This document shows, in pieces, positions 18,190 through 64,000 of a DNA stretch of 64,000 nucleotides. Source of the stretch: Vicinamibacterales bacterium (GTDB lineage: Bacteria; Acidobacteriota; Vicinamibacteria; Vicinamibacterales; 2-12-FULL-66-21); assembly GCA_035758845.1 (NCBI GenBank), contig DASTVZ010000178.1, positions 34,713 to 98,712 of the forward strand. The letters are read 5' to 3'. The number at the start of each line of letters is the position of its first letter. Within the stretch, counting starts at the first letter, position 1. The notes beneath the pieces were generated by a model, which searched no databases, was not told where the DNA came from, and saw only the letters and a program-made list of their open reading frames with translations. A program made the translations under genes and the position numbers.

Positions 18190-20376
18190 ATGTCCTGGCA
18201 ACGAAAAGCTCGCATCGCCATAGCCGCGTTCGTGATCGTCTTCATCGCGATCGTGGTCGTTGCCTTGCGTCAGCGTAAGGGGCCGCCACAGACCGCGGCC
18301 GTGCCCGAGCGGCGGGACAAAGACTGCATTCTCGAGAACACCCAGAGCGGTGAGGTGAAGCAGTCCAAAGACGGGAAGATTGTTTTTGCGATGAAGTTTG
18401 GCGCCCAGTGCAGCTACAACGATGGTCGCACACGACTCGGAAATGGCGTCGAGATTACATCGTTGAGAAATGGGAAACCGTTCACCGTCCGAAGCAACGA
18501 AGCGGAGGTGGTTCAGTCTGGCGAGGATTTGAAGACCGCTCATTACATCGGAGCGGTGAAGCTGACGAGCGAGGGGACGGAAGTCACGACCGACGATGCC
18601 ACCTACGATCACCAGGCCGGACTACTTAAAGCGCCTGGACCGGTGGCGTTCACGCGTGGGCGGATGCATGGAAGCGGCGTCGGCGCGACATACGATTTCA
18701 ACCGCGAAGTGCTCTGGCTGCTCGCGCAGCCTCACGTCACAGTGACGCCCGACGAGAAGGGTCAAGGCGCGATCGATGCCACGGCTGAATCGATTGGCCT
18801 GGCGAAAGCCGAACACTATCTGAAACTGACGCGCAGCGCACACATCAATGCCGAAGGACGCGTCATTGATGCCGATGAGATCATGATCCTGCTGACCCAG
18901 GACGATCAGCGCGTCCAGGTGCTGCAGCTTCGCAACAACAGCCGCATCACCAGCTCGGGGGACGGCGGCCCCCAGTCGATGGCCGCTCGCGATATCGACC
19001 TGACCTACGGCGACGACGGCCGCACGCTGCAGCACTCGCACCTGGTCGAGAACGCCGTCGTGCAACTACCCGGCGAAGCCAACGGAGCCGGAAAGCGGGT
19101 CGCCGGGAAAACGATCGACATGTCGATGTCGCCAGATGGCAAGACGTTAACCAGTCTCGACGCGGTGGAGAACGTCGAGGTCGATCTGCCGCCGGATGGC
19201 GATTCGCCCGCGAAGCGTATTCGTTCAGCCACGTTGAACGCGACCGGAGCACCGGGAACAGGGCTGCAGAACGCGACGTTTGGCGGCAATGTCGAGTATC
19301 GCGAGACTCGAGCCGCACGGGGCACTCTGCCGGCCGTCGATCGACAGGCACGCGCGGTGACCCTGGTCATTACGACCAAGCCCGGGTTTGGTGCGGTCGA
19401 ACAGGCGGACTTTCGCGGCAACGTGCACTTCACGGATGGTCCGCAGGTCGCGGCGGACGCGACCCACGCCTTGTACCATGTCGAGAAAGACCAAATCGAT
19501 CTGTCGCCGTCGCAGGATCCGGGGCCGTCGGCGCCGCGAGTGAGCGACGGCCGGGTCACCGTCGAAGCGCGGGCCATCGAGTTCTCGATTGCCTCGAGAA
19601 AGCTGAAAGCGGACACAAAAGTGCGCACCTCGATGCTGCCGCAGAAGGGGGCAGATGGGGGTCAATCCGGGGTCAAACCGGGGTCAGACCAGGGTCAGAC
19701 CCCAACACGCGTGCCGGCATTGTTGCAGCAGGACCAACCCGTCACCGTCACGTCCAACCGGCTCGAGTACGATGGACTCGCCGGCCACGCCGTCTACATT
19801 GGAAACTCCCGGTTGTGGCAGGGCGCGACCAAAGTGAACGCCGACACGATCGTCGTCGACGACAAAACCGGCAACCTCGAGGCACGCGTCAACGTGCACA
19901 CTGAAATGATGATGGACGACGTCGATCCGAAGACCAACGTCCGAAAGAGCACGCCGTCGACGGGAGAATCGGAAACATTCCTGTACGATGACGCGAAACG
20001 GCTCGCGACCTACACCACCAAGGCGCACATGATCGGTTCGGAAGGGGACGTCGCTGCCGAAAAACTTGAACTCTATTTGAAGAAGGACGTGAATGAGCTC
20101 GAGCGCGTCGAAGGATACGGCGCCAATGGTTCGGTGATAGTGAAGGAAGGAGGTCGGATCGCAACTGGCGCTCGTCTCACGTATCTGTCGAAGGACCAGA
20201 CCTATCACATGACCGGAACACCCGTGGAGGCGATCGAAATCGCTCCAAACGACTGCAAGAAGTCGGTCGGTGCCACATTGACCTTCCAGCGCGCGGTCGA
20301 CTCCATCACCATGAAGGGGCCAAATCTACTCAGGTCCGTGCAGCAGTCAATCGCGTGTCCAACGGAGACGCGGTAG
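18190..20376 (+). CDS. membrane-anchored LptC/LptA (OstA-like) multi-domain protein
   Basis: N-terminal TM anchor (IAIAAFVIVFIAIVVVAL) followed by repeated OstA-type strands (A.D.A.Y..., FRGNVHF, FGGNVEY, NADTIVVDDKTGNLEARVNVH). Sits 4 nt upstream of lptB, in the lptC-lptA slot. Confidence 0.7.
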   Translation: MSWQRKARIAIAAFVIVFIAIVVVALRQRKGPPQTAAVPERRDKDCILENTQSGEVKQSKDGKIVFAMKFGAQCSYNDGRTRLGNGVEITSLRNGKPFTVRSNEAEVVQSGEDLKTAHYIGAVKLTSEGTEVTTDDATYDHQAGLLKAPGPVAFTRGRMHGSGVGATYDFNREVLWLLAQPHVTVTPDEKGQGAIDATAESIGLAKAEHYLKLTRSAHINAEGRVIDADEIMILLTQDDQRVQVLQLRNNSRITSSGDGGPQSMAARDIDLTYGDDGRTLQHSHLVENAVVQLPGEANGAGKRVAGKTIDMSMSPDGKTLTSLDAVENVEVDLPPDGDSPAKRIRSATLNATGAPGTGLQNATFGGNVEYRETRAARGTLPAVDRQARAVTLVITTKPGFGAVEQADFRGNVHFTDGPQVAADATHALYHVEKDQIDLSPSQDPGPSAPRVSDGRVTVEARAIEFSIASRKLKADTKVRTSMLPQKGADGGQSGVKPGSDQGQTPTRVPALLQQDQPVTVTSNRLEYDGLAGHAVYIGNSRLWQGATKVNADTIVVDDKTGNLEARVNVHTEMMMDDVDPKTNVRKSTPSTGESETFLYDDAKRLATYTTKAHMIGSEGDVAAEKLELYLKKDVNELERVEGYGANGSVIVKEGGRIATGARLTYLSKDQTYHMTGTPVEAIEIAPNDCKKSVGATLTFQRAVDSITMKGPNLLRSVQQSIACPTETR

Positions 20377-39819: not shown

Positions 39820-42204
39820 ATGTTGCGAACGATCGACCGGTACATCATCAGGGAAACCATCCCGCCGTTCTTGCTCTCGCTGGTCATCTTCACGTTTCTG
39901 CTGGAAATCCCGCCCGTGATGCGCGACCTCGAGATGCTGGTCGCCAAGGGAGTCTCCTGGCCGGTCGCTGGCCGCATCGTCCTGACCCTGATTCCGCAGG
40001 CCCTGGGGCTTACCATTCCGATGGCCCTGCTGACCGGTCTTCTGATTGGCCTTGGACGTTTGTCCAGCGATCGCGAGACGGTTGCGCTCCTAGCGTGTGG
40101 CGTCAGCCCGCACCGGTTGTTGAGGCCCGTACTCCTGATGGCGACGATCGCGGCGGGCGCAACCCTCTACGTCATGGTCAAGGCGCTGCCCGACGCAAAC
40201 CAGACGTTCCGGGAAATCACCTTCGACGTCATCGCCAAGCAGGTCGAAAACGACGTCCGGCCGCGCGTGTTCTTCGAGAATTTCCCGGGCTGGGTGCTGT
40301 ACGCGCGTGACGAGCCGGAAGACCGCGTCGGCTGGAAAGACATGCTCGTCGCGAACACGGCGAGGCAAGATTCGACAGAACTGTTCCTGGCTTCCCGTGG
40401 CCGGCTGATTGTGAGCCGCCAGGAGCGCCGCGTCGATCTAGTACTGACCGACGGGACGCGGTACGCGACCGGCAAACCGGGTGAGACGCGTACCTATCGC
40501 TTCCCCGGCGATTTGACGATGGCGTTGAACCCGGAGAAGGTGTTCGAGAAAGCCGAATTGCCGCGCGGGTTGACGGAGAAGACGATCGCCGACTTGCAGC
40601 ATGACAGGCATGTGAAACTCACTGGCAACCCACAGCTCTCGCCGCACCCCGAAATCATCTTCATGGAGCAGAAATTCTCGGTGCCGTTTGCCTGCTTCGT
40701 GTTTGCGATCATCGGGCTGGCACTCGGGCTGTCGGTGGCCCGCGATGGAAAAATGGGCGGGTTCGTGATCGGCATCGCCGTCATCTTCGCCTACTACGTG
40801 ATCATGTACCTGGCGGAAGCGCAGACGCAGGGGCACTACCGGGCGATAGAAACTGCCCACCAGCTCAATTCCGCGAACTTTGCGCTCGCCCACCTCGCGC
40901 GCTGGTGGCCGAACATCATCCTGGGGATATTTGGAATCGGCGCGCTCGTCTGGCGCGATCGCTTCGCCAGCCGTCAACTTCCGCGAAGCTTCCCCGTCCT
41001 CGTGCCGCAGCTCGCCAGGAGGTGGCGCGGCCGTCGGGTCGCAAGCGAGCCTGCGTCGATTCCCGAGACTCTCAGTGGCAAAAGACGCAACGTCGTCGTT
41101 GTCGTAAGAGTGCCGAAATTTAAACTCCCGAGTGCAGGCCTCATCGACCAGTACGTGAGCCGGATGTATCTGCGCGTAGTCGCGCTGGCGTTTCTCGCAC
41201 TTGTCGGTCTTTTTTATATCTCCACGTTCATCGACGCGTCCGACAAGCTGTTCAAAGGATCGGCAACGGGTACGATGATCATGTCGTTGCTCGTTTACCG
41301 GACGCCGCAATTCGTCTACTTCGTCATTCCCATCGCGGCACTGCTCAGCGTGCTGGTGACCTTCGGACTGCTCTCGCGCACGAGCGAACTGACGGTCATG
41401 AAAGCCTGCGGGATCAGCCTGTATCGAGTCGCGCTGCCGATCGTCCTCCTGTCGCTGCTCTTCAGCGGCGCATTATTTGCCCTCGACCAGGAGATTCTCG
41501 CGCGCGCCAACCGCCGCGCGACCGCAATCGACGATCAGATCCGCGGCCGCCCTCCGAAGACGTTCAATCCGCTCAATCGTCGATGGATAATCGGCCGCGA
41601 TGGCAGCATTTATCACTACGGATACTTCGATCCGCGACGCGAAACCCTCACGTCTCTGAGCGTCTACCGGCTGGTGCCCAATACGTGGAGGCTCGCCTCG
41701 CAAACCTACTCGGCCACCGCTGAATTTCGGAATGGATGGACGGGCATCAACGGCTGGACCCAGGATTTCACGGGGGCGGCGGTAAAGGGGCGAACGTTCA
41801 GCCGCGAGTCGCTGCCGCTCGAAACGCCGGAGTACTTCAAGACCGAGGACACTGAAGCAGATCTGATGACCGTGGCACAGCTGCGGCGGACGGTCCGAGA
41901 ACTGGCGGCAACCGGCGCGAATGTGGTGCCGCAGCAAGTCGATCTCCAGAGGAAGCTCGCGTTTCCATTCGTCACGTTCGTGATGACTTTGCTCGCCGTG
42001 CCGTTTGGCGTGACGACTGGCCGGCGCGGCGCGCTGTATGGGATTGGTCTCGGGATTGTGCTGGCGCTCACATACTGGTTACTCATGAGCGTCTTCGTTG
42101 CCGTCGGAAAGGCTGGCCTGCTTCCACCACTTCTTGCGGCGTGGACGCCGAACATCATTGTCTCGGCGACCGCCATCTATCTGCTTCTTACGACGAAGAC
42201 CTAG
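39820..42204 (+). CDS. fused LptF-LptG LPS export permease (two YjgP/YjgQ modules)
   Basis: 794 aa. The first module starts IDRYIIRETIPPFLL and the second starts near residue 440 with IDQYVSRMYLRVVALAFL. Each module has 6 TM segments plus a periplasmic beta-jellyroll insert. Confidence 0.8.
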   Translation: MLRTIDRYIIRETIPPFLLSLVIFTFLLEIPPVMRDLEMLVAKGVSWPVAGRIVLTLIPQALGLTIPMALLTGLLIGLGRLSSDRETVALLACGVSPHRLLRPVLLMATIAAGATLYVMVKALPDANQTFREITFDVIAKQVENDVRPRVFFENFPGWVLYARDEPEDRVGWKDMLVANTARQDSTELFLASRGRLIVSRQERRVDLVLTDGTRYATGKPGETRTYRFPGDLTMALNPEKVFEKAELPRGLTEKTIADLQHDRHVKLTGNPQLSPHPEIIFMEQKFSVPFACFVFAIIGLALGLSVARDGKMGGFVIGIAVIFAYYVIMYLAEAQTQGHYRAIETAHQLNSANFALAHLARWWPNIILGIFGIGALVWRDRFASRQLPRSFPVLVPQLARRWRGRRVASEPASIPETLSGKRRNVVVVVRVPKFKLPSAGLIDQYVSRMYLRVVALAFLALVGLFYISTFIDASDKLFKGSATGTMIMSLLVYRTPQFVYFVIPIAALLSVLVTFGLLSRTSELTVMKACGISLYRVALPIVLLSLLFSGALFALDQEILARANRRATAIDDQIRGRPPKTFNPLNRRWIIGRDGSIYHYGYFDPRRETLTSLSVYRLVPNTWRLASQTYSATAEFRNGWTGINGWTQDFTGAAVKGRTFSRESLPLETPEYFKTEDTEADLMTVAQLRRTVRELAATGANVVPQQVDLQRKLAFPFVTFVMTLLAVPFGVTTGRRGALYGIGLGIVLALTYWLLMSVFVAVGKAGLLPPLLAAWTPNIIVSATAIYLLLTTKT

Positions 42205-50071: not shown

Positions 50072-51355
50072 ATGAACTTTGACGGAGGGTGCGCGCGCGC
50101 TGCTGCTGCGCTCGCGATTGTGATAGGTGTGTGTGCGTCTCTGGGCTCCTCATCCGGGACGATCGCATCCTCCGAAGCCTCAGCTTCTGAAACTCGTGCG
50201 CTGTGGGTTCAGCGCGGATCACTTGCCACTCCTCAGAGTATTGCCACGCTGGTGAAATCGGCGCGCGAGCACGGGTTCAACACGCTGCTGGTGCAGGTGC
50301 GAGGGCGTGGCGACGCTTACTATCTCGGCGGCGTCGAGCCGCGCGCGACGGAACTGTTTCGGCAGGCGGACGATTTCGATCCGCTCGCGACGGTACTCGA
50401 CGCGGGACACGCTGCCGGTCTCCGCATTCACGCGTGGATCAACGTCAATCTGATTTCGAGCGCGGCGGAATTACCCTCGGCGCGGGAACACGTGATTTAC
50501 CGACACCCGGCGTGGCTGATGGTGCCGCGGGACATCGGCCAGCAACTGGCGGCCATGGAGCCCGACAGTCCGGGTTATGTCGGCACGCTGGCGCGATGGA
50601 CGCGCGCGCAATCTGCGGCGATTGAGGGGCTGTACCTCTCACCGATCGTTCCTGACGCCGCCGACTACACCGACTCGATCGTTCGCGCGCTCGTTCGACG
50701 ATATCCGGTCGACGGTATTCACTTCGACTACGCGCGATATCCAAACGACCGCTTTGACTACAGTCGTCTCGCGATCCGCGAATTTCGCGCGTCGGTGCGG
50801 AATCAGCTTGCGGAAGCGACTCGCCGTACTCTGGACGCGCAGGAACAGGCGGATCTCTTCGCCTACCCGGATTCGCTGCCCGATCGGTGGCGCGAGTTTC
50901 GAATCTCGCGGATGACCGAACTCATCACCCGCCTGCGTGCGACCGTCAAACGCGAACGTCCCGACGCGCTGGTCAGCGTCGCGGTCGTTCCCAACGCGCG
51001 TGAGGCTGAAATCCACCGACTCCAAAACTGGGGCGCCTGGGCCGAAACCGGCCTGGTCGACGCCGTGTGTCCGATGGCTTACGCAACCGAAGCAACCCAT
51101 TTCGCCGAACAGATCGCCGACGCTCGCGCCGCCGCCGGCTCGCGGCCGGTGTGGGCCGGCATCGGTTCGTATCGTCTGTCGCCGAAGGAAACCGTGGACA
51201 ACATCCAGACGGCTCGCCGGCTTGGCGCCACTGGCATCGTCCTGTTTTCGTACGACAGCCTGATCAACTCGCGGCAGTCTGACTCCGACTACCTGGCTGT
51301 CGTCGGACGAGCGGCGTTCGCTCCGGTGGCATCTTCGGCGGCCGGATCCCGCTGA
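50072..51355 (+). CDS. glycoside-hydrolase-like family 10 protein (DUF187/YngK type), secreted
   Basis: N-terminal signal. RALWVQR...GFNTLLVQVRGRGDAYY...GLRIHAWINV and GIHFDYARYP motifs of the DUF187 TIM-barrel. Confidence 0.65.
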   Translation: MNFDGGCARAAAALAIVIGVCASLGSSSGTIASSEASASETRALWVQRGSLATPQSIATLVKSAREHGFNTLLVQVRGRGDAYYLGGVEPRATELFRQADDFDPLATVLDAGHAAGLRIHAWINVNLISSAAELPSAREHVIYRHPAWLMVPRDIGQQLAAMEPDSPGYVGTLARWTRAQSAAIEGLYLSPIVPDAADYTDSIVRALVRRYPVDGIHFDYARYPNDRFDYSRLAIREFRASVRNQLAEATRRTLDAQEQADLFAYPDSLPDRWREFRISRMTELITRLRATVKRERPDALVSVAVVPNAREAEIHRLQNWGAWAETGLVDAVCPMAYATEATHFAEQIADARAAAGSRPVWAGIGSYRLSPKETVDNIQTARRLGATGIVLFSYDSLINSRQSDSDYLAVVGRAAFAPVASSAAGSR

Positions 51356-51373
51356 CCGCGATCAACAGAACGG

Positions 51374-52810
51374 ATGGTCCTCACCTGGGTTGACTACATC
51401 GTCATAGCCGGGTATCTGCTTGCGATCACCGCGTTCGGATCCTGGTTTGCGCGATTTCAGAAAACCACCCGCGACTATTTCCTCACCGGCCGCTCGGTGC
51501 CCTGGTGGGCAATCTGTTTCACGGTTGTCGCCACCGAGACCAGTACGCTGAGCTTCATCGGCGTTCCCGCAGGCGCCTATGCCGGCAACATGACGTTCCT
51601 CCAACTGCCCCTCGGGTACATCTGCGGCCGGTTCCTGGTCAGTCTGCTCTTCATCCCGGCATATTTTCGCGGCGAGCTGTACACCTCGTATGAACTTTTG
51701 CAGCGCCGTTTCGGCGCGCCGGTCAAGAACGCCGCCGCGATTATTTTCGTCGTCACCCGCACGCTCGCCGATGGCGTAAGGCTATTCGCCACCGCGCTGG
51801 CGATCGCGGTGGTCACCGGTGTTCCGGTGTCATTGACGGTCATTCTTCTCGGCGTGGCAATGATCGTTTACACAGTTCGCGGAGGGGTTGCCGCAGTCAT
51901 CTGGACCGATGTGGTCCAGATGTTCGTGTACGTCGCCGGAGCGCTGATCGTGTTCTTCGCACTGCTGTGGCAGATTCCCGGGGGATGGGCAACGGTTGTC
52001 GCCGCTGGAGACGCGGCGGGCAAGTTTCAGATATTCGACTTCAGTTTCAATCCCGCCAAGGTGTACACGTTCTGGGCCGGCCTGTTCGGCGGCATTGCGC
52101 TCACGCTGGCAACCCACGGAACCGATCAATTCCTCGTCCAGCGACTGCTATCGGCGCGATCCGCGAATGATGCCGGCAAGGGTCTGATTCTGAGCGGGTT
52201 CATCGTCTTCGCCCAGTTTCTGTTGTTCCTGATCATCGGTGTCATGCTCTACACGTATTACCAGCACACACCGCTGCCACGGCCGCTCGGGCGAACCGAC
52301 GAAATCCTGCCGCTCTTCGTGGTGCACGGGATTCCGCAGGGCATCTCAGGATTCATCATGGCCGCAATCGTCGCGGCGGCGTTGTCCCCCTCGATTAATG
52401 CGCTCGCCGCAACAACCGTCAATGATTTCTACGTGAAGTACGTGAGACCCGACGCGGATCAGGACACGCTGATGCGATTGTCGCGGCAGGCGACCATCGG
52501 GTGGGGCGTTGCGCAGATCGCCGTCGCCCTGGGCGCCCAATGGATCGATCGCTCCGTGCTCGATGCCGGTCTGCTCGTGCTCTCTTTCGCGGCGGGACCG
52601 GTGCTCGGCGCGTTTCTGACCGGTGTTCTCATTCGTCGCGTCGGTTCGATGGCGATGCTCTGGGGAATGATCGGCGGCACTGGTGTTGTGACCTACATCT
52701 GGTGGGCGACTGCCTGCGCCTGGACCTGGTACGCGCTGCTCGGCGCGTTATGCACGGGTGGACTTGCGGTCGCCTTGTCGTTTGCAATGCCCGCACGCGC
52801 GAATGCTTGA
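51374..52810 (+). CDS. sodium:solute symporter family transporter
   Basis: 478 aa, about 13 TM segments. YFLTGRSVPWW and the SSS-type N-terminal region. Confidence 0.85.
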   Translation: MVLTWVDYIVIAGYLLAITAFGSWFARFQKTTRDYFLTGRSVPWWAICFTVVATETSTLSFIGVPAGAYAGNMTFLQLPLGYICGRFLVSLLFIPAYFRGELYTSYELLQRRFGAPVKNAAAIIFVVTRTLADGVRLFATALAIAVVTGVPVSLTVILLGVAMIVYTVRGGVAAVIWTDVVQMFVYVAGALIVFFALLWQIPGGWATVVAAGDAAGKFQIFDFSFNPAKVYTFWAGLFGGIALTLATHGTDQFLVQRLLSARSANDAGKGLILSGFIVFAQFLLFLIIGVMLYTYYQHTPLPRPLGRTDEILPLFVVHGIPQGISGFIMAAIVAAALSPSINALAATTVNDFYVKYVRPDADQDTLMRLSRQATIGWGVAQIAVALGAQWIDRSVLDAGLLVLSFAAGPVLGAFLTGVLIRRVGSMAMLWGMIGGTGVVTYIWWATACAWTWYALLGALCTGGLAVALSFAMPARANA

Positions 52811-53900
52811 ATCTTTCGAACGCGCGTCGGAGATCCTGCTCGAAGGGATCCTCCATCGGGCGTTTCCGGCAGCGACCACTGAAGTTGGCCGATCAACCGG
52901 GCCAATCTGGCGACGCGCATTCGGCACGCTCACTTACGCAGCCGATTCGCCCGACGTCGGCCACGACACGATTTTCGATCTCGCCTCGCTGACGAAGGTC
53001 ATCGCGACGACGACCTTGTCGATGCGAGCGATCGATGACGGTCTGCTGACGCTGGACGATCGCCTCGCTGCGCACCTTCCGGAGTGGCGCGGCACGGATC
53101 GCGAAGCGGTCACAATCCGGGATCTGCTCGTACACGCCTCCGGGCTGCCAGCGTATCTGCCGTTCTTTCGCGATCACACCGGCCGTGTCGAATTCGAACC
53201 CGCGATCTGCCACACGCCGCTCGAGTATCCGCCTCGCTCGCAATCGATCTACAGCGACCTCGGCTTCATGCTCCTCGGATTCATCCTTGAAGATCTTCGT
53301 CGAAACACGCAGGCCCGTCCCGGCCAGTTCGATCCCTCCGCGACCCTGGTCTCACAATTCCGGCGCGTCGCTGCCTTCATCACGATCGAACCGCTCGCCT
53401 ACAACCCGCCACGTCCGTGGCGGTCGCGAACCGCGCCGACCGAACACGACGCTTGGCGCGGAAGAACCCTGCAAGGAGAAGTGCACGACGAAAACGCATG
53501 GGCTCTCGGGGGGGCCGCCGGCCACGCCGGGCTGTTCGGAACGGCCGGGGCCGTCGGCGCGTTCGCGCAATCCGTGTTGCGGACAATCGGCGGTGAACGC
53601 GTCATCTCCGCGCCCGACACTTTTCGCGATTTCATGCGTCGCGCCGGAACTCCCGGCAGTTCGAGAGCCCTCGGATGGGACACGATGCTTCCGACGTCAT
53701 CGTGCGGATCGCGAATGTCACCGACGGCCATCGGGCATACGGGCTTCACCGGGACGTCACTGTGGATCGACTGGGAGCGGGATCTGTACGTCGTGCTGTT
53801 GACCAATCGCGTGCACCCGACGCGCGAGAACGATCGGCTTCGCGCGATCCGACCGGCGTTTCACGATGCGGTGATTGAGGAATTCGATCGAACGCTGTAG
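52803..53900 (+). CDS. serine hydrolase, beta-lactamase/DD-peptidase fold (AmiE/YbbE-like candidate)
   Basis: SxxK motif (FDLASLTKV), YSD, and a HTGFTG (KTG-like) box. ATG 52803 overlaps the symporter stop. Confidence 0.8.
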   Translation: MLESFERASEILLEGILHRAFPAATTEVGRSTGPIWRRAFGTLTYAADSPDVGHDTIFDLASLTKVIATTTLSMRAIDDGLLTLDDRLAAHLPEWRGTDREAVTIRDLLVHASGLPAYLPFFRDHTGRVEFEPAICHTPLEYPPRSQSIYSDLGFMLLGFILEDLRRNTQARPGQFDPSATLVSQFRRVAAFITIEPLAYNPPRPWRSRTAPTEHDAWRGRTLQGEVHDENAWALGGAAGHAGLFGTAGAVGAFAQSVLRTIGGERVISAPDTFRDFMRRAGTPGSSRALGWDTMLPTSSCGSRMSPTAIGHTGFTGTSLWIDWERDLYVVLLTNRVHPTRENDRLRAIRPAFHDAVIEEFDRTL

Positions 53901-53995: not shown

Positions 53996-55276
53996 TTACA
54001 AACAGGGTCCATTTACGGTAATGCTGGTCTGACCCTGACCGACTGGACCGGTCGATTGAGTAACGGTAACCCGAACGTCAAAGGTGCTTGGTTTTGTATA
54101 CGTGTGCGAAATCTGCGGACTGCTCACCGTTGTTGTCGCTGATCCATCGCCGAAGTCCCATTCGTAAGAAGTAATGGACGAAACCGCCCCGGAGACGCTG
54201 GCGGTAAACGTGACTCTAGCGTTACACGACGCCGTTGCCGGACCGGTGATGGTTACCGCCGGCGGTTGAGCCGGGAGAATGGTGACCGCGGTGGCGACCT
54301 GCTCGTTGAAGCCGCTTGCGTCGGTCGCAGTCGCTCTCACCGTGAATGTGCCAGGCTGCCTGTACACATGTTGGATGACGGTGCTACCGCTGATCGCCCC
54401 CAGCGGTTGCTGCGAGCCATCACCAAAATCCACGATGACATTCTGAATGTTTGCCGTGGCGGCGACGTTCACCGTAAAGCTCGCCGGCAGTCCCGCGGAA
54501 ACCGCGGTCGTTGGAGCGGTGATGCTGAGACCCGTTCGCGGACTCAGACTGACGGTCACATCGGCCGTCTTGCCGGCAACGTTCGCCGTTACCTTCGCCG
54601 TGCGTGGCGCATTAAGAGACGTGGTCGCCACGCCATTTGAATCTGTCGTCGCCGTCGGCGGATTCAACGAGCCATTGTCGGTGGTAAACGTGACCGGGAT
54701 CCCGGAAAGGCCGAGGCCGGACACATCCTCGACACGAGCGGTGATCGTTGATGTCCCACCACCCGGCGGCAGCGTCTGTGGGCTGGCAGACAGGGTCACG
54801 CGCTCCACGGCTGCTGCTCCCACCTTCAGGTTCTCGAGCTTGCCCGATGCCCCACCTGAGAATGCCGTGATCGTCGCCGTGCCGCTCTGATTGCCCGAAA
54901 AGAAACGCACTCGTACTTGACCATTGCTGGTTCGGGCTTCACTCGGCTCGATTCGGCCGATCGTTGTCGTGAAAGACACCAGCGTGCCATTTTGTACCGG
55001 CGTTCCTGCTCCGGTAGTCGTCGTACTCGTAGTGCCTGTTGTTCCCGTTCCCGGAGTCCCGTTTGTCGGCGTCGTCGGCGTGCTTTGCGCCGTCCCGTTT
55101 TCAATGACGTTGGCGATGATCTCGATATCGCCATTCAGCGGGACGGTGTTGGCCGATGCAAAGACGCTGATCACCGAACCGGTCGGCGCGAGCAGCGGGA
55201 CTTTGTCGCACGCGACCGCGAGCGACAGAGCCGCGATGAGGCAGAGCACGGCAAGGCCGGCAAAGGAGCGCTTCAT
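53996..55276 (-). CDS. lipoprotein with bacterial Ig-like (Big_1-type) and two PKD domains
   Basis: Lipobox LAVAC after MKRSFAGLAVLCLIAALS. Thr-rich linker. PKD signatures (VDFGDGS...HVY, WDFGDGS...HTY). Start trimmed to ATG 55276. Confidence 0.7.
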   Translation of the reverse strand: MKRSFAGLAVLCLIAALSLAVACDKVPLLAPTGSVISVFASANTVPLNGDIEIIANVIENGTAQSTPTTPTNGTPGTGTTGTTSTTTTGAGTPVQNGTLVSFTTTIGRIEPSEARTSNGQVRVRFFSGNQSGTATITAFSGGASGKLENLKVGAAAVERVTLSASPQTLPPGGGTSTITARVEDVSGLGLSGIPVTFTTDNGSLNPPTATTDSNGVATTSLNAPRTAKVTANVAGKTADVTVSLSPRTGLSITAPTTAVSAGLPASFTVNVAATANIQNVIVDFGDGSQQPLGAISGSTVIQHVYRQPGTFTVRATATDASGFNEQVATAVTILPAQPPAVTITGPATASCNARVTFTASVSGAVSSITSYEWDFGDGSATTTVSSPQISHTYTKPSTFDVRVTVTQSTGPVGQGQTSITVNGPCL

Positions 55277-55313
55277 GTGTGCTACCATCGGAGACGCTAA
55301 GGATAATACTCTC

Positions 55314-56120
55314 ATGTGTTTAGAGGGTGGTCAAGACAACGAGCGGGGCTACGCCATGGCGGCGCTGCTCGTGAGCCTTGCCGTGATGATGGTGCTCATG
55401 TCCGTCGCGATGCCCGTCTGGAAGACACAGGCGCAGCGCGAGAAGGAAGCGGAACTCATTTTTCGCGGTGAACAGATTGCGCGGGGGATCAATCTTTATA
55501 TGCGGAAGATGGGCGGAGCCAGCTATCCGCCAAGTCTTGACGTCCTGGTGCAAGGCCGTTTCCTTCGAAAGAAATACAAGGATCCCATGACGGAAAATGA
55601 CACCTCGCTGCCGATGAATCAGCGTGGCGAATGGGACATTGTCAATGCTGCGGGCGGCGTGCCTGGCCAAGGAGGTGCTTCGCCGCAGCAGCCCGGCGGA
55701 CGTGGCCGCGCGGGTGCCCCCGCGACCGGCCTGAGTGCTCCACCGTCGCCACGGTCGGGAATAGGGTCTCCCACAGGATCGCCAGGGCCCTCGCTCGGTG
55801 GACAGACGGCAGTCGGCGGAATGATGGGTGTCCGCAGCAAGAGTAAGGAATCGTCCTTCAAGATCTACAAAGGAACAGGCACGCATTACAACGAGTGGCT
55901 GTTCCTCTTCAGCACGGTGAGCAACCGGCCCGGCGCCCCCGGCGGAGGCCAGCCCGTTCCGGGAATGCCGGGGCGGGGGGGGCCAGGACAACGCGGCGCC
56001 CCCGTTCCCGGCATGGGCCCGGGACGCGGCATCAACATCGGGCCTGACGGTGGCCGCGGGCCACGCGGCTTCGGACCGGGTCCGGTGCAGCCTGGTGTTC
56101 AGCGCGGGCGCGGCCAATAG
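55314..56120 (+). CDS. GspG-like pseudopilin paralogue with a degenerate prepilin signal and a Gly/Pro/Arg-rich C-terminal tail
   Basis: Hydrophobic N-terminal helix (GYAMAALLVSLAVMMVLMSVAMPVW), then a GspG-core-like segment (GEQIARGINLYMRKMGGASYPPSLDVLVQGRFLRKKYKDPMT). The upstream part of the track ORF (from 54924) is antisense to the Ig/PKD gene. Confidence 0.55.
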   Translation: MCLEGGQDNERGYAMAALLVSLAVMMVLMSVAMPVWKTQAQREKEAELIFRGEQIARGINLYMRKMGGASYPPSLDVLVQGRFLRKKYKDPMTENDTSLPMNQRGEWDIVNAAGGVPGQGGASPQQPGGRGRAGAPATGLSAPPSPRSGIGSPTGSPGPSLGGQTAVGGMMGVRSKSKESSFKIYKGTGTHYNEWLFLFSTVSNRPGAPGGGQPVPGMPGRGGPGQRGAPVPGMGPGRGINIGPDGGRGPRGFGPGPVQPGVQRGRGQ

Positions 56121-57716: not shown

Positions 57717-58118
57717 TTACCAATCTGAGTAGGAAGTGCCGTCGAGACCCGTACCAGGCGCGCCGCTCTTTATGTTGTAAATCCCAGGATCGCCCGATGT
57801 ATTTCCGGGCTCGGGTTCAGCCGGGACCGTCTGCCAGGTGTCGGCCGACTTGGTGATCGGATCTTCTGGAATCGCGCGCATGTAGCCGTCGCTGACAAGC
57901 GCGTCGAGGGAGGCGGGGTACTTCGCCTTGTCGGCGTAGTACTGATCGATCGCGTCGCGCATGCGGAAGAGATCGGTGCGAAGCGTCGCTTCTTTCGCGC
58001 TCTGGACGGAGTTGCGGTACTGCACGACCCCCATCGTCGCGAGGATTGAGATCAGCGCGATGACGATGAGCAGTTCGATCAGCGTGAACCCGCCGGCGCC
58101 CCGTTTCCTGTCGTTCAT
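57717..58118 (-). CDS. type II secretion pseudopilin GspG-like (prepilin-type N-terminal cleavage/methylation domain)
   Basis: Leader MNDRKRGAGG followed by FTLIELLIVIALISILA. GspG core (AIDQYYADKAKYPASLDALVSDGYMRAIPEDP). C-terminal LDGTSYSDW. Confidence 0.85.
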   Translation of the reverse strand: MNDRKRGAGGFTLIELLIVIALISILATMGVVQYRNSVQSAKEATLRTDLFRMRDAIDQYYADKAKYPASLDALVSDGYMRAIPEDPITKSADTWQTVPAEPEPGNTSGDPGIYNIKSGAPGTGLDGTSYSDW

Positions 58119-58167: not shown

Positions 58168-58635
58168 CTACCAGTCGCGATACTTGGTTCCGTCGAGCGC
58201 TGTGCCTTCTGCCTTGGTGTAAACGTCGTACACGTTGCCGCCGCCCCACGACGTCGAATCCGGTTTGTCGCCGTAGGCCCGCATTCCCCACTCCGTCGAT
58301 TTCGTCATCGGGTCCTGGGGAATGCGGCGAAGGAACTTCAGCTTGCGGCCGGACGCATCGTTTGCCACCGAGACGCCCTCGACGAGCGTTTCGAGATCCG
58401 GCGGATATCCCTCGCTGCCGACTTTGACGTCGACCGATCCAATGAGCCCGTTGTCGACCGAATCCTTGTACTTGTCGATCGCCAGTCGTATCTCGCGAAG
58501 CGCGCGATGCAACTCGATTTCGCGCTGACGCTGAACCGTGACCCGCGCAAGCGGCATCGCGGCCGTAGCAAGGATCAAGAGGATCGTCGTGACGACGAGG
58601 AGTTCGATGAAGGTGAAGCCCTTCGCCCCTCGCAC
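58168..58635 (-). CDS. type II secretion pseudopilin GspG-like, second copy
   Basis: KG followed by FTFIELLVVTTILLILA, and a C-terminal LDGTKYRDW. I prefer GTG 58635 (leader MRGAKG). The track start at 58680 adds a (RVP)n extension encoded by a 9-nt repeat. Confidence 0.8.
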   Translation of the reverse strand: MRGAKGFTFIELLVVTTILLILATAAMPLARVTVQRQREIELHRALREIRLAIDKYKDSVDNGLIGSVDVKVGSEGYPPDLETLVEGVSVANDASGRKLKFLRRIPQDPMTKSTEWGMRAYGDKPDSTSWGGGNVYDVYTKAEGTALDGTKYRDW

Positions 58636-58682
58636 CCCTGGCACTCTTGGCACCCGCGGCACCCGTAGCACCCAATTCACAT

Positions 58683-61214
58683 CTACCTCACCATCACATT
58701 CACCGGGCTGAACTGCAGGTTGATCGCCGCACCCTCGGGTGTGCTCGCGACGCCGCTCACCTGAATCACCGACCCGCCGGGACCGATGGCGTCGAAGATG
58801 AGTGCGGCGAGCAGTCCAGTGCCTGATGCGCCGGCCTGATCGGCTGTTCGTGTAATCGCGATGTCGATTCGACCCGACGCCGCGTCGATCCGCGGCGTGA
58901 AAGACGTCGCGACGCCCCCCTGCCGCATGAACGTGCCGTCCTGAGCCGTGCGTACGCGAAGCACGTTCGGGTTGTAGGTCACCGTCAGCGTCATCACCGA
59001 GAGACGGGCCACGTTGTTGATCGAGACCGGCACCGTATATGGACCACCGGCAACGCGGAACTCGGTCCCTGGTGGCGTGACGATCACTTGCGCGGTTGTT
59101 GCAGCGGGGGGAGTGGCCGTCCCCGGTGCCGCTGCAGGAGTCGGCGAGACGTCTCGTGGCGGCGTCGTGGGCGCAGCAACTCCACCCGGCGGCGGCGTCA
59201 CTGGCGCAATACCACCAGGCGTGGTGACGGGCGGTGCACCACCCGGTGCCGTGGCGGGCGGAGCCCCCGGCAGCGGCGTCACTAGTGTCGGTACGGGCGA
59301 CGTCCCCGGCGGCGCCGGGAAGTTAGTCGGCGGCACTCCGCCTTCGGGATTTGCCGTGGACCGTGGAACACCCGGAACGGTTCCCGGCTGCGTGCCGCCC
59401 GCTGGCGGCGCCCCTCCCGGAGCAGTTCCGGGTGGTGGATTATCTGGCCCGGGTTGCGGGGCGATGAGTGGCGGCGGACCGCCAAGGCCGACGTTCTGCT
59501 GCGTGCCGATGTAGATCGACGACAGATCTTCCACCGTGAGTTCGTGAGTGCGGACGATGTGCGGCGTCAGCAGCATGACGATGTCTGACTGGTTGATTTC
59601 GTCGTTGGTGGATCCGAAGAGGGACCGGAGAATGGGGGTCTTGGTGATGCCTGGGAAACCTGTCAGGATCTTGCGCTGCTCGTCGCGGAGCAACCCCGCG
59701 AGCAACGTCGACTCCCCTTCGCGCAATCGAAGCTTCGTCGTGACCTTGCGCGAACTGAACGACGGCACGTCCTGCCCGGCCACACTGATGCTTGGTCCAA
59801 GCGCGCTGCTCTCCAGCATGAAGGCATCGAGCACGATCTCCCCTTCGTAGGTCACACGCGGGGTCATTTCGAGATTGACGCCGACGTCTTTGTAGTTGAA
59901 CGACGACTGCGGGGTCGTCGCCAGCCCTCCGGGCACGGCGGCGCCGAAGACGGTCGACAGCACCGGAATCTGATCGCCGAGGTTCAGCGTCAGTTTGGTC
60001 CCTTCAGCGCCGCGAAGCTGCGGCTTCGCGATCACTTTCGTGCGGGAGTCGGTCTCGAGGAACTTGATGACCGCCGCCGGCACGCTGAGGTAGAAGTCCG
60101 CGGTACTGATTCCCTGTGAGATGGTGTTGAGATTGAAGGGCGGCGGCTGTGTTGGCGCGCTCGGCAAGGTATTCGGCGTGTTCGGAGGAGCCACTTCCGG
60201 CGAGAACGTCAGGCCCAACGCATAGGCGCTGAGATTCAGCCCGAGATCCTTCGTTCGCTTGCGATTCACCTCGAGGATCTGGACATCGACGATCACCTCG
60301 GCGCGCGGCTTGTCGTTGGCCTTGATGATCCGTTCGATGACGTCCATGACCGGAGCCGTCGCGCGCACGGTCAACGTGTTCGCCGTCTTGTTCTGCAGCA
60401 CCGTCGGCTGCACCGGCATCGTCGGGACACGCATGATCGTGTTGATGATCTGCGAGATTTCCGCCACGTCCGCGTGCGAGATGAAGAAGACCTTGACGAC
60501 GAGGTCGTCGTATTGGGCGTGCTTCTGCGCGTTATCGGGAACGATGATGATCGTCTTCGGATTCAGAACCTTGTAAAAGAACTGATTCGCCGCCGTGACC
60601 TGCTGCAGCGCCTGTTCGAGCGTGACGTCTTCGAGCCGTACGGTGTAGGCCTTGTCTTGATATTGCTGGTCGTAGGTGACGTTAATTCCCGTCGCGCTGC
60701 CGATGAAGTTCAGGATGTCGCGAACGCTGGCGTTCGGCCCGAAGCTGACGACCGGCAGTGGCGACGTCGGATTGAGCAGCGGCGTACTCGCCCGTCGCGC
60801 TTCCTCGCGCTGTCTCTCGATGGGCGGCTTTGGACGCAACGCCTCAATGCGATCGCGAATAGTCTTCTCGAGCTCGACGCTCTTTGCCGCCGCAAGGCGA
60901 TTCGAGGGATCAATGTCGAGCGCGCGCTTGTACTGGAGAAGCGCGGCGTCGAGCTGATCCGCCTGTTCCAGTTCGTGCGCGCGGCTCAAATGCTCGCGCG
61001 ACGCAGTCTGGACCGCCCGTTCGAGCGCGATCTTGTATTCGGCCTTGTTCGGGCTCTCCTGGACTGCCGTCGTGTAGTGCGTGACGGCAGCGTCCCAGTC
61101 GCCAACACGCGACGCCTCCTGCCCTTGACGGTACGCGCGTCCGGCAGCACATCCCGAGACGCACATCGCAAGAACGATTGCAATTGCAATCCTGTGCTTC
61201 ACCAACACCGCCAC
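58683..61214 (-). CDS. secretin (GspD/PilQ family) with an N-terminal lipidated TPR module and a C-terminal Pro-rich linker plus cohesin-like domain
   Basis: Lipobox VSGC. TPR-like helices at residues ~25-115. Secretin_N-type domains. Secretin core (GVNLEMTPRV...GFPGITKTPILRSLFG...VMLLTPHIV). A Pro/Gly/Thr linker of about 110 aa. The terminal ~140 aa beta-domain resembles cohesin (YTVPVSINNVARLSVMTLTVTYNPNVL...GTGLLAALIFDAIGPGG). Confidence 0.88.
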   Translation of the reverse strand: MAVLVKHRIAIAIVLAMCVSGCAAGRAYRQGQEASRVGDWDAAVTHYTTAVQESPNKAEYKIALERAVQTASREHLSRAHELEQADQLDAALLQYKRALDIDPSNRLAAAKSVELEKTIRDRIEALRPKPPIERQREEARRASTPLLNPTSPLPVVSFGPNASVRDILNFIGSATGINVTYDQQYQDKAYTVRLEDVTLEQALQQVTAANQFFYKVLNPKTIIIVPDNAQKHAQYDDLVVKVFFISHADVAEISQIINTIMRVPTMPVQPTVLQNKTANTLTVRATAPVMDVIERIIKANDKPRAEVIVDVQILEVNRKRTKDLGLNLSAYALGLTFSPEVAPPNTPNTLPSAPTQPPPFNLNTISQGISTADFYLSVPAAVIKFLETDSRTKVIAKPQLRGAEGTKLTLNLGDQIPVLSTVFGAAVPGGLATTPQSSFNYKDVGVNLEMTPRVTYEGEIVLDAFMLESSALGPSISVAGQDVPSFSSRKVTTKLRLREGESTLLAGLLRDEQRKILTGFPGITKTPILRSLFGSTNDEINQSDIVMLLTPHIVRTHELTVEDLSSIYIGTQQNVGLGGPPPLIAPQPGPDNPPPGTAPGGAPPAGGTQPGTVPGVPRSTANPEGGVPPTNFPAPPGTSPVPTLVTPLPGAPPATAPGGAPPVTTPGGIAPVTPPPGGVAAPTTPPRDVSPTPAAAPGTATPPAATTAQVIVTPPGTEFRVAGGPYTVPVSINNVARLSVMTLTVTYNPNVLRVRTAQDGTFMRQGGVATSFTPRIDAASGRIDIAITRTADQAGASGTGLLAALIFDAIGPGGSVIQVSGVASTPEGAAINLQFSPVNVMVR

Positions 61215-61387
61215 CCCATCTTTAGATCCGAGGGGCTTCGCCCCTCGGACTCCCCTTCACGCTCTCTCGCGAGCCGCTTCGTCGGCTCGCTCCGTTCGCG
61301 TGGCTCGCTTCGCTGCGCTCGCGTCTTTCTTCGCCGCTCTTGCCTCGCCATAGCAAGTGTCATCCTACGATGGCGAGACGAGTCGGG

Positions 61388-61975
61388 TTATTTCCCGACG
61401 CACTCCTGACCGGACAGCCGAATCGTTTGCCGGCCACGGCCGTCGACATACTCCATGACCACCGACTCGACGCCAATCTTCACGAGTCGATACTGACCTG
61501 AGATGATGTCCCCCTCGCGACCGCGCATAGTACTCCGACAATCACTGAATGCCGCCAACTTTCCACCACCCTTTTCCTCCAACAGCCCGATGTACTTTAA
61601 CGGGATGGCCGGCGGAGGCGGCGGTGGGGGCGGCACCGTCGACTCCGGCGTCGGCGGCGGCTCTGGCTTCGGCTGCGGCGGCGGAGGTGGCGGCGGCGGC
61701 TTCACGTAGAACCGAAACGGGTTCCGCTCGCTCGACTCGGCGTCCGGACGCGGCTCGCTCAGCGCCTTCAGGTGCACCTCGAGATCCCCCGGCTGCACAC
61801 TCTCGACGGTCTTCCCCCTCTGTGTCGCCCGGGGATTAGACGGTGCGGGTCCGGGCGCGGCTGGCTTTCCTACGGGCAGCCACGAGATCAGCGCCACGGC
61901 AACAACGATCGCCAAGGCGACGAGGAGCCACGGTCTCGGCCGGCCCGAAGGGCGGGTTGACGCGTCAGTTTCCAT
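61388..61975 (-). CDS. PilP-like / GspC-HR-like pilus assembly protein with a poly-Pro linker
   Basis: One TM (PWLLVALAIVVAVALISWL), runs of Pro, and a C-terminal beta-domain (LKYIGLLEEKGGGKLAAFSD...GDIISGQYRLVKIGVESVVMEY) like the PilP fold pattern. The start is ambiguous (61975 or 62017). Confidence 0.5.
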   Translation of the reverse strand: METDASTRPSGRPRPWLLVALAIVVAVALISWLPVGKPAAPGPAPSNPRATQRGKTVESVQPGDLEVHLKALSEPRPDAESSERNPFRFYVKPPPPPPPPQPKPEPPPTPESTVPPPPPPPPAIPLKYIGLLEEKGGGKLAAFSDCRSTMRGREGDIISGQYRLVKIGVESVVMEYVDGRGRQTIRLSGQECVGK

Positions 61976-62540
61976 TCGCTCCGGTCCGGTAGTACGTGGC
62001 GATGTCGACGCTGACATTCAACCCGCGATTTTCAATCTCGCTCTGGGTAAGCTCGACATTTTCGAGGACGAGAAATTCCGGGGCGGTTTCCAGCTCATGG
62101 ATGAAGCGACGGATGTTCCGGTACTCACCCGATAGCGACGCCCGATACGTGAACTTCACCAGCTGACTATCCCGCTGCGGTTGCGGATCGGACGTCTCGC
62201 GCTCGAGTCGCAGATTGGACTTTTGCGCCAGCTGCTCGATCCGAAGAAACGTCGCCCGTCGTGCGGCGCTCAAATCCGGCGGCAACACGTCGCTGTAGAA
62301 CTTCTGCAGCTCCTGATCGGCCTGTCCTTTTCCTGTTACCGTCGCGCGCGCCGCGTCGTAATCACGTTTCGCGGCATGGAGCGCGGTCGTTGCCGCCTTC
62401 GACTGCTGCTCCCCACCCGCCACTTTTTTCGACAGTGGATAGACCACAATCGCGAAGAGCGCGATGTTCACCACGAGTGCGATCACAATCGGCAGAATCA
62501 GTCTGCGCTTCTCGGCCAGCACACGACGCGCATCTGTCAT
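61965..62540 (-). CDS. PilO/GspM-like pilus assembly protein
   Basis: 191 aa. N-terminal TM, a coiled coil and a C-terminal ferredoxin-like part. Located between pilN-like and pilP-like genes, with an ATGA overlap with the pilN-like gene. Confidence 0.65.
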   Translation of the reverse strand: MTDARRVLAEKRRLILPIVIALVVNIALFAIVVYPLSKKVAGGEQQSKAATTALHAAKRDYDAARATVTGKGQADQELQKFYSDVLPPDLSAARRATFLRIEQLAQKSNLRLERETSDPQPQRDSQLVKFTYRASLSGEYRNIRRFIHELETAPEFLVLENVELTQSEIENRGLNVSVDIATYYRTGANGN

Positions 62541-63238
62541 TGCCGCCCCCGATCGCGCGGCACCTGAGGCGGCGGCGCATTTCCTGATGGCGGCTGACCG
62601 GCGCGGCCGGGCTCCGGGGTCGTCGGTGGTGTCGGATTGGTCGGAGCCGCGGGTGCAGCTTCCTGCGGCTTCGCTTCCGTCGCCGCGACATTTCCTACGT
62701 ACACGCTTTCAATTGTGGACCGCCGCAGCCCGTCGTCAGTGGTCTCGGTGGACGCCGGAACGGCGTCCTCGAAATAGCCGGTGGCCTCGAGCTTCTCCAT
62801 GAACTCGTCGATATCGGCAATCTGGCGACCGAGCACAATCATGGTGACGCGGGTGACACCATCCTTGAACGAAGGTCGAACCGATGTGAGCATCACGTCC
62901 GGCGGGATGGTCGCCTCGATCTGATTGAAGAACTCCGTCCACGAAAACGTCCGCTGATCGATCAACGCATTGGCTTCCTGCGCGGCGTTGACCACGAGCG
63001 TGAGTTCATCCTTATTGATCGTTCTCCGGATACGCAACGCCTCGGTACTCAACTTGGACGCTTCGTTTCGATCGGCGTTGGTGCGCGAAGACAGATCCGT
63101 GCTGTGCCGCGACAAGGTCACGATGCGACTGACATTCAGTACGGTGATCGCTAACACGATCAGCGCCGCGACCGCGAGCAGCAGGTGGATCGCGCGTTCG
63201 TTGTAAAAAGGGCGTGTCGCAAGGTTGGCGCGCAGCAT
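62537..63238 (-). CDS. PilN-like fimbrial assembly protein with a Pro-rich C-terminal tail
   Basis: N-terminal NLATRPFYNER followed by a TM segment, typical of the PilN family. Lies immediately downstream of pilM. Confidence 0.7.
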   Translation of the reverse strand: MLRANLATRPFYNERAIHLLLAVAALIVLAITVLNVSRIVTLSRHSTDLSSRTNADRNEASKLSTEALRIRRTINKDELTLVVNAAQEANALIDQRTFSWTEFFNQIEATIPPDVMLTSVRPSFKDGVTRVTMIVLGRQIADIDEFMEKLEATGYFEDAVPASTETTDDGLRRSTIESVYVGNVAATEAKPQEAAPAAPTNPTPPTTPEPGRAGQPPSGNAPPPQVPRDRGRQ

Positions 63239-64000
63239 CTAAGCGACCCGCTCCCGCAGAATGAGCCCAATGGCGGGCGCCAGGCTGTCGAGCAGCTCTG
63301 GCGCTGCAGCGATCCGATCGCGCAACGCGACGGCGCCGCGGAAGTCGAGTGCCTCGACGCGCGTACCGAGACGGCCTTCGAGCTCACGTCGCAGGAGGTC
63401 CGCCACCTCAGGTCCGCGAAGCGATGCGCCGGCGAGGACGACTCGCGCGAAGCCGCTGCCGCCCAATCGATCTTCGTGATACATCGCTGTCTGGTGCACC
63501 AGATCTGCAAGATCGTCGTCTTTGTCCGATGCTCGGGTGCGAAAGAAGATGACTTGCGATTCGCGAATCACCGCCATCGTGCTGTAGTCGGCGGCCACGT
63601 GCACGAGCAGCCAATCGGTTGCCGGCGTCGCGCGAGTCTCGGTGCCAAGGACGGCATTGACCAAGTTCACCGTCGCCAGATCGACAATGCCGGGATAGGC
63701 GCCGGCCGCTTCGCAGGCGCGCTCGTAGCTCTGGATGATGTCACGTCGCGCGACCGTCACGATGTACTCGCGGCCGCCTTCGGGAGGCACGATGCCAGGC
63801 ACCCACGAGACCTGCGCATCCTCAATCTTGAACGGCGCGGCTTTCCTGACCTGCCAGCGAATGAGCTGATCCAGATCCTGCACCTTCGCAGGAATTTTCT
63901 CGAACCGTATCAGAGACAATTTGCCGACCGTGTCGGGCAGTACGAGCGCGATCCGTTTCGGCCGCGACGACAGCCGGTCGAGAACGCTGCGGATGGCTGC
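63239..64000 (-). CDS. pilM: type IV pilus assembly ATPase-fold protein PilM; N-terminus outside window
   Basis: Actin-like fold motifs (IVDLATVNLVNAV, LLVHVAADYSTMAVI, VVLAGASL). The reading frame stays open through 63920-64000 (RIALVLPDTVGKLSLIRF), so the gene continues past the window edge. Confidence 0.8.
   Translation of the reverse strand, partial: AAIRSVLDRLSSRPKRIALVLPDTVGKLSLIRFEKIPAKVQDLDQLIRWQVRKAAPFKIEDAQVSWVPGIVPPEGGREYIVTVARRDIIQSYERACEAAGAYPGIVDLATVNLVNAVLGTETRATPATDWLLVHVAADYSTMAVIRESQVIFFRTRASDKDDDLADLVHQTAMYHEDRLGGSGFARVVLAGASLRGPEVADLLRRELEGRLGTRVEALDFRGAVALRDRIAAAPELLDSLAPAIGLILRERVA

Follow-up and report, generated by a model that had tools for sequence, protein, structure and literature searches.

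A secretin of soil Acidobacteria with a predicted lipid-anchored TPR module and a tethered cohesin-fold domain

The recognition of cargo in type II secretion (T2S) and the targeting and bracing of secretins in the outer membrane are so far partly understood. The barrels of solved secretins end on the periplasmic side, where S-domains bind periplasmic lipoprotein pilotins. The class 3 pilotins PilF, PilW, Tgl and TadD are outer-membrane lipoproteins made of tetratricopeptide repeats (TPRs), which act in secretin assembly as separate proteins of ~240-250 amino acids (aa) with ~6 repeats. The C-terminal peptide of the secretin RcpA is bound by one of these, TadD, which rings the barrel (PMC12531336; PMC12114550). 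In lipidated secretins, the N-terminal segment climbs the barrel to the membrane (PMC12531336). In BfpB this segment, the LG domain, carries the acyl anchor, packs outside the barrel at the site of the GspD S-domain and descends to the N0 domain (PMC12531336; PMC12114550). Here we describe a related protein encoded in a 64,000-nt stretch of DNA from a Vicinamibacterales bacterium (contig DASTVZ010000178.1), called the window below. A single open reading frame (ORF) of 843 aa at 58683..61214 of the window encodes what, judged from its sequence, is an outer-membrane secretin. It would belong to a pilus or secretion machine of Acidobacteria that are common in soil, and it has a predicted lipid-anchored TPR module at its N-terminus and a tethered cohesin at its C-terminus.

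The protein is similar in part to several described systems. The liposecretins HxcQ (Pseudomonas aeruginosa T2S system, T2SS), BfpB and TcpC (both type IVb pili) share with it the lipobox Cys before N0 and a short periplasmic part of N0 and N3 with no recognisable S-domain. Like the LG domain of BfpB (PMC12531336), its N-terminal segment has to bridge the distance between the membrane anchor and N0. This segment differs from those of the liposecretins in being a folded module of 2-3 TPRs rather than a single helix followed by extended strands, and the C-terminal tether and domain are present in none of the liposecretins described. With the class 3 pilotins the module has in common its (here predicted) nature as an outer-membrane TPR lipoprotein, but it is only ~100 aa long and fused in cis. 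GspD/PulD of T2SSs and PilQ of type IVa pili share the secretin core, N0 and N3, and an operon with an ATPase, a platform protein, alignment proteins and GspG-like pilins. In contrast to them, the protein lacks N1/N2, AMIN and S-domains and has the putative lipid-anchored TPR module and the cohesin as additions.

A periplasmic TPR region joined or bound to an outer-membrane channel also exists in BcsC, PgaA, PelB and AlgK-AlgE. These channels are monomeric porin-type barrels, in which 10-19 TPRs guide polysaccharide, whereas here the channel would be a multimeric secretin and the 2-3 TPRs adjoin a predicted lipid anchor. The C-terminal domain has the same nine-strand beta-sandwich as the cohesins of the cellulosomal scaffoldins SdbA, OlpB and ScaB and of Archaeoglobus fulgidus (2xdh). 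Pro/Thr-rich tethers are usual in anchoring scaffoldins, and a similar linker leads to the envelope anchor here; this anchor, however, is a secretin in a diderm envelope instead of an SLH module or a sortase-attached tail, and the domain, unlike cellulosomal cohesins, may be periplasmic. A first-pass annotation, made from the DNA letters of the window, had noted that no characterised secretin is known to combine these parts. Our literature searches agree with it, since they found no paper that describes a fusion of secretin and cohesin or deals with the secretion systems of Vicinamibacterales. The architecture is nevertheless abundant in public sequences, where it is named GspD or CpaC. The domain combination can already be read from precomputed Pfam annotations of public proteins; the novelty lies in recognising the architecture and its breadth, not in the sequence.

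The ORF lies on the minus strand, which the first-pass annotation had not given. It opens with GTG, the candidate true start codons being the in-frame GTG or TTG codons within 61202-61214, and the stop codon occupies 58683-58685. Along the polypeptide a lipoprotein signal, 2-3 TPR repeats, N0, N3, the secretin barrel, a 27-aa tail, a Pro-rich tether and the cohesin-fold domain follow one another (Table 1).

The secretin core was clearly matched. Pfam Secretin (PF00263) scored 106.9 bits over aa 386-555 (E 1e-30; cut-off 27.5), and PDB secretins were matched by this region at 1e-18 to 1e-8 in the sequence search. The core contains a Pro-rich insertion loop at ~aa 330-379. It is preceded by N0 and N3, in agreement with the secondary structure of the AlphaFold2 (AF2) model. 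STN/N0 (aa 191-226, 21 bits) and Secretin_N (PF03958; aa 240-305, 23.7 bits) stayed under their cut-offs in this protein; in divergent homologs of the same architecture STN reached 23-34 bits (max 33.8), and PF03958 was above its cut-off in homologs (max 46.7 bits). The Secretin_N-type domains and canonical core proposed from the letters are therefore confirmed. N1/N2 rings, AMIN domains and an S-domain were not matched in the Pfam scan, which found a single N3. The full-length AF2 monomer model has a predicted TM (pTM) score of only 0.30; its Foldseek matches were PilQ, BfpB, InvG and GspD, with PilQ and BfpB as the best.

Assignment of the protein to T2SS, type IV pilus or Tad secretins from sequence or fold was rejected, because its distance to PDB secretins is about the same for every class. 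The GspD model TIGR02517 gave 142 bits (cut-off 351), with the match limited to model positions 302-594, and the PilQ model TIGR02515 gave 113 bits (cut-off 284); the MshL and SctC models were likewise far under their cut-offs. GspD of Myxococcus (863 aa) was considered as a studied relative and set aside, as its domain layout could not be established from the paper.

At the N-terminus, the residues M-A-V-L-V-K-H-R are followed by a hydrophobic stretch and V-S-G-C22; the full signal peptide reads MAVLVKHRIAIAIVLAMCVSG, then C22. The lipobox was judged by sequence pattern and conservation. Its Cys, in the form V[ST]G|C (or SAC/AGC), was present in 55/55 aligned homologs with an intact N-terminus. 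Consistently, the Cys and the GDWD-x-AV start of the TPR module were kept in all 12 divergent representatives (40-58% identical). Cys22 is thus predicted to be lipidated, and the lipobox named in the first-pass annotation holds in close and divergent homologs alike. A match to the N-terminus of the Myxococcus TraC lipoprotein (NCBIfam, E 5e-11) was taken as generic signal peptide or TPR similarity; the literature was unhelpful.

The helices after the lipobox are TPR-like, as had been proposed. TPR_1, TPR_2 and TPR_11 of Pfam matched aa 28-105 at ~28-29 bits, at or above their cut-offs, and the AF2 model places helices at 23-37, 40-53, 58-84, 88-101 and 106-126 with a per-residue confidence (pLDDT) of 80-91. 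The first-pass annotation had further suggested that the module may be a fused pilotin that makes the secretin self-targeting. A lipidated TPR module is supported by the pattern above, but identity with a pilotin is not: the module has 2-3 repeats in ~100 aa instead of ~6, and the PilW model TIGR02521 gave it 14.4 bits against a cut-off of 154. In the PDB sequence search it matched generic, consensus or designed TPR proteins as well as proteins of the Hop/SGT type, and none of the matches was a pilotin. By these comparisons the TPR module is not a member of the PilF/PilW/Tgl/TadD family. As a description of what the module does, "fused pilotin" is plausible, and the protein is probably a lipidated, self-targeting ("self-piloting") secretin, which would place it in the known class of HxcQ and BfpB with a TPR spacer as an addition. 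The connector between the TPR module and N0 would be long enough to span from the outer-membrane anchor to the base of the periplasmic ring, which is reminiscent of the BfpB LG domain.

The tether is 125 aa long, slightly above the ~110 aa estimated earlier for a Pro-rich linker, and its length ranges from 95 to 153 aa among homologs. The P/G/T/A-rich composition was as described: a 121-aa sample contained 40 P, 19 G, 17 A and 17 T.

The C-terminal domain was matched by Pfam Cohesin (PF00963) over aa 726-827 with 29.5 bits (cut-off 24.1, E 9.5e-7). Its separate AF2 model, built with 35 homologs, has nine strands and one short helix (pLDDT 88.2, pTM 0.80), and the best 50 Foldseek matches in the PDB were all cohesins. 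The best was 2xdh, the non-cellulosomal cohesin of A. fulgidus (TM 0.76, E 4e-9); type I and type II cellulosomal cohesins came next (TM 0.63-0.78, identity 11-21%). The PDB-sequence profile search also returned 2xdh, although weakly. The cohesin-like domain of the first-pass annotation is thus supported by profile and by fold.

The architecture is widespread. Among 5.8 billion proteins searched, 3988 homologs were found. The best 120 of them are 64-96% identical and all 717-866 aa long, and on 90 of these 120 PF00963 was precomputed together with PF00263 and TPR families. Their public names include "general secretion pathway protein D", "GspD/PulD", "HofQ" and "CpaC". The same architecture was seen in 10/10 representatives of distinct 50%-identity clusters (40-58% identical), so it is kept down to ~40% identity. 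When one genome per species was scanned with the cohesin profile, at least 125 species had it. The loci of 80 of the 125 species were kept for analysis, and the synteny counts given below are out of 80. The 80 genomes are all Vicinamibacterales or Acidobacteriota metagenome-assembled genomes (MAGs), except one bin labelled Bifidobacteriaceae. In this "uncultured Bifidobacteriaceae bacterium" MAG (CAZNOC010000011.1, L071) the secretin-cohesin locus is 58% identical, and the contig is probably mis-binned.

The identity to the window protein was averaged by region over 56 homologs. It was 75% for the TPR module, 87% for N0, 84% for N3, 87% for the secretin core, 92% for the post-barrel tail (aa 561-582 scored), 60% for the tether and 83% for the cohesin. 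The cohesin is therefore conserved nearly as well as the pore, whereas the tether is variable in sequence and length, which indicates a functional domain on a spacer. The cohesin appears to be under purifying selection. No other segment is as well conserved as the tail, which occupies the position of the S-domain, has many invariant columns and is presumably functional.

An ORF of this kind could in principle be an artefact, in which a secretin gene and a small cohesin gene are joined by an assembly or frameshift error or by read-through. Many database entries are indeed cohesin-only proteins of 123-230 aa, and in some contigs secretin and cohesin are called as separate genes. However, in 54 of the 70 evaluable loci a single frame stays open over at least 650 codons and into the cohesin, and 14 of the 16 interrupted frames come from long-read MFD MAGs, which are prone to indels and whose neighbouring genes are fragmented too. 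In MFD long-read MAGs (L001/L021, L082 and other loci) the secretin, GspE and GspF are split into many short gene calls. Such indel errors are the source of spurious public database proteins of the "cohesin-only" and "Secretin_N-only" kinds. Moreover, the 134-aa entries have as their start an internal GTG that coincides exactly with the domain boundary, a sign of gene-caller behaviour; the best 120 homologs are all full-length; and the frame is maintained across the whole range of tether lengths. Separate small cohesin genes were accordingly rejected as split or frameshifted calls in the Pro-rich linker, contig-end fragments or products of broken long-read assemblies. A mis-join of two genes, which the first-pass annotation had raised against itself, is extremely improbable.

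The explanation that we favour, with moderate confidence, is a self-piloting liposecretin of a conserved, T2SS-like Vicinamibacterales machine, with cohesins that act as periplasmic docking modules. Acylated Cys22 and the TPR helices would lie at the inner face of the outer membrane, outside the barrel. There they may act in cis in place of separate pilotins and S-domains, targeting the protein to the membrane and bracing the ring in a manner like that of HxcQ and BfpB. The TPR module may also clamp the conserved post-barrel tail, as the TPR clamp of TadD holds the C-terminus of RcpA. Because the barrel ends on the periplasmic side in solved secretins, this is also the most likely side for the tether to begin. 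One cohesin from each of the 12-15 subunits would accordingly hang into the periplasm around the channel. As a protein-docking module, the cohesin would hold a partner at the secretin, which may be secreted cargo or an accessory or envelope component. A periplasmic position of the cohesin seems fairly probable; consistently, the C-termini of T2S and type III secretion secretins were not detected at the cell surface (PMC4453517).

Several results weigh against this explanation. For BfpB and PilQ, which are secretins of type IV pili, C-terminal tags proved accessible on intact cells (PMC4453517). Since these two are the best structural matches of the full-length model, the periplasmic location is insecure. 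All other close relatives of the cohesin domain belong to extracellular or cell-surface proteins, such as multi-cohesin proteins with type IX secretion tails. Specific similarity of the TPR module to any pilotin was found neither with the PilW model nor in the PDB search. In addition, the first-pass annotation had taken the cohesin-like domain to imply a specific protein partner, dockerin-like or other, but a six-frame regular-expression search of the window and 81 related loci (1.36 Mb, one syntenic region) found no dockerin-like calcium loops, single or paired.

The surface-exposed tags and the extracellular relatives would fit a different arrangement, in which the tether and the cohesin are outside the cell. 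The secretin ring would then be an outer-membrane anchor in place of SLH or sortase, displaying 12-15 cohesins around the exit pore. These would catch emerging proteins with a dockerin or another tag, or a filament, giving a cellulosome-like assembly on a secretion machine. The Pro/Thr-rich tether, typical of anchoring scaffoldins, speaks for it as well, and the related delta-type T2SS of Myxococcus puts tagged proteins on the cell surface (PMC12475490). On the other hand, solved barrels end in the periplasm, with S-domains that bind periplasmic pilotins (PMC12531336), and no route is known by which a folded C-terminal domain attached outside the barrel could cross the membrane, unless the 12-15 tethers thread the channel. 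The neighbouring genes are T2SS-like, and T2S secretins are those whose C-termini are not surface exposed (PMC4453517). The lack of a dockerin in the window and the 81 loci also disfavours it. We consider surface display unlikely.

The same lack of a dockerin from the conserved neighbourhood would suit a cohesin-like domain that binds a part of the machine or the envelope rather than cargo. It may bind the inner-membrane platform (GspC, PilN or PilO, which also have Pro-rich spacers) and so strengthen the link across the envelope. It may instead bind a wall-associated protein and replace the AMIN domains that the secretin does not have. Or it may fold into the periplasmic vestibule as a built-in plug of undocked channels, as SlkA/SlkB do for PilQ; such separate plug proteins for secretins exist (PMC13392014). 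The protein has only N0 and one N3 ring, a tether of 95-153 aa would suffice to reach either the platform or the vestibule, and the machine genes are strictly co-conserved with the secretin-cohesin fusion. In contrast, no cohesin is known in such a role, and no protein of the cluster has a recognisable dockerin-like module. A role inside the machine is, in our view, also an improbable one. Quite doubtful is the specific proposal that a ring of 12-15 cohesins gathers proteins with a matching dockerin-like tag at the periplasmic entrance for export, or holds them at the exit pore afterwards; in both cases a cohesin-dockerin-type code would be coupled directly to a secretin in abundant soil Acidobacteria.

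A predicted lipid-anchored TPR module is combined here with a putative docking module on a long tether, in an entire order of soil bacteria that are very common but little studied, and thousands of such proteins are now annotated simply as GspD. If the cohesin recruits or retains cargo at the pore, this would be a new and engineerable coupling of secretion to complex assembly in Gram-negative bacteria. Should it do no more than brace the machine, secretins without AMIN and S-domains would still be seen to have a new accessory solution.

Table 1. Regions of the secretin and neighbouring genes of its cluster (positions in the window)
Feature	Position	Strand	Basis
PilM-like, N-terminus cut by window end	63239..64000	-	Pfam PilM_2; frame open to window edge
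PilN-like	62537..63238	-	Pfam PilN 28.6 bits; syntenic in 67/80 loci
PilO/GspM-like	61965..62540	-	Pfam PilO, T2SSM_b; NCBIfam GspM_XpsM E 2e-10; syntenic in 67/80 loci
GspC/PilP-like, 209 aa: membrane anchor, poly-Pro spacer, small C-terminal beta domain	61388..62017	-	NCBIfam GspC_delta E 3e-6, under cut-off; 68/80 loci
Predicted signal peptide and lipobox, aa 1-22	61149..61214	-	Sequence; K6/H7/R8 positive, hydrophobic core, V-S-G-C22
TPR module, aa 23-126: five helices, i.e. two full TPR repeats and flanking/capping helices	60837..61148	-	Pfam, AF2
Pro-containing connector TPR-N0, aa 127-155	60750..60836	-	Low pLDDT at 139-150
N0 (STN-type), aa 156-232	60519..60749	-	Pfam STN; AF2 mixed alpha/beta fold
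N3 (Secretin_N), aa 236-308	60291..60509	-	Pfam PF03958
Secretin core, aa 309-555	59550..60290	-	Pfam Secretin; PDB sequence matches; Foldseek
Conserved post-barrel tail, aa 556-582, begins THELTVEDLSSIYIGTQQNVGLGG at T556	59469..59549	-	92% mean identity
Disordered Pro/Gly/Ala/Thr-rich tether, aa 583-707	59094..59468	-	Composition; pLDDT <35
C-terminal cohesin-fold domain, aa 708-843 (136 aa)	58686..59093	-	Pfam, AF2, Foldseek
GspG-like (pseudo)pilin 1	58168..58680	-	N_methyl motif; best NCBIfam GspG; 79/80 loci, 76% identity
GspG-like (pseudo)pilin 2	57717..58118	-	N_methyl and weak T2SSG; NCBIfam GspG E 5.8e-11; 78/80 loci

The type of machine was assessed from the neighbouring genes. On the minus strand the cluster runs, from upstream to downstream, PilM-PilN-PilO/GspM-GspC-like-secretin-GspG-GspG, and the first pilin gene starts 2 nt past the secretin stop codon. 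This order is conserved in 67-79 of the 80 species loci, and SLT, GspF and GspE lie further upstream in related contigs. The best NCBIfam matches of the neighbours (GspG for both pilins, GspM_XpsM and GspC_delta) were all under the family cut-offs. Gene content and order indicate a T2SS-like type IV filament system, with PilM and PilN in place of a split GspL. The assignment of the machine as T2SS-like is thus a leaning, and it comes only from the neighbour genes.

A spacer of 173 nt (61215-61387, minus strand) separates the GspC-like gene from the start of the secretin gene and folds into three GC-rich hairpins, all strong, of which the last lies directly 5' of the start codon. The minimum free energy of the spacer is -89.3 kcal/mol (z = -5.6 versus shuffles). 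The spacer had no Rfam match, and Rfam and tRNA scans of the window returned nothing. The hairpins could be an operon-internal mRNA stabiliser or a processing site that tunes secretin expression.

Two further genes lie beyond the pilins. The minus-strand gene at 53996-55315 encodes a putative lipoprotein of 439 aa, which has one Big_1 domain, two PKD domains and an insert rich in Thr and Gly. In 67 of the 80 loci a Big_1/PKD lipoprotein gene, in either orientation, lies no more than ~2 kb from the pilin genes; its product may be cargo of the machine or a partner at the surface. The ORF at 55323-56120 (plus strand; 76/80 loci) is pilin-like, with a hydrophobic N-terminal helix, no Glu5 and a long Gly/Pro-rich low-complexity tail. 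No docking module was recognisable in either protein. A block at 50072-53900 (plus strand) with a GHL10 glycosyl-hydrolase-like gene, a sodium:solute symporter and a beta-lactamase-fold protein adjoins the cluster in 39-58 of the 80 loci, with no evident functional link to it.

The remaining window is ordinary core chromosome, with genes for DnaE, GuaA, RecJ, Lpt proteins, PTS enzyme I, TolB, RecN and MiaB. A 1323-aa histidine kinase (HAMP, HisKA, HATPase_c) is encoded at 2714-6685 (minus strand), and its first ~1000 residues have no Pfam match at E <= 1e-5. Two fusions related to lipopolysaccharide transport are encoded on the plus strand: a 728-aa protein at 18190-20376 combines LptC with LptA/LptD_N, and a 794-aa protein at 39820-42204 carries two LptF_LptG domains.

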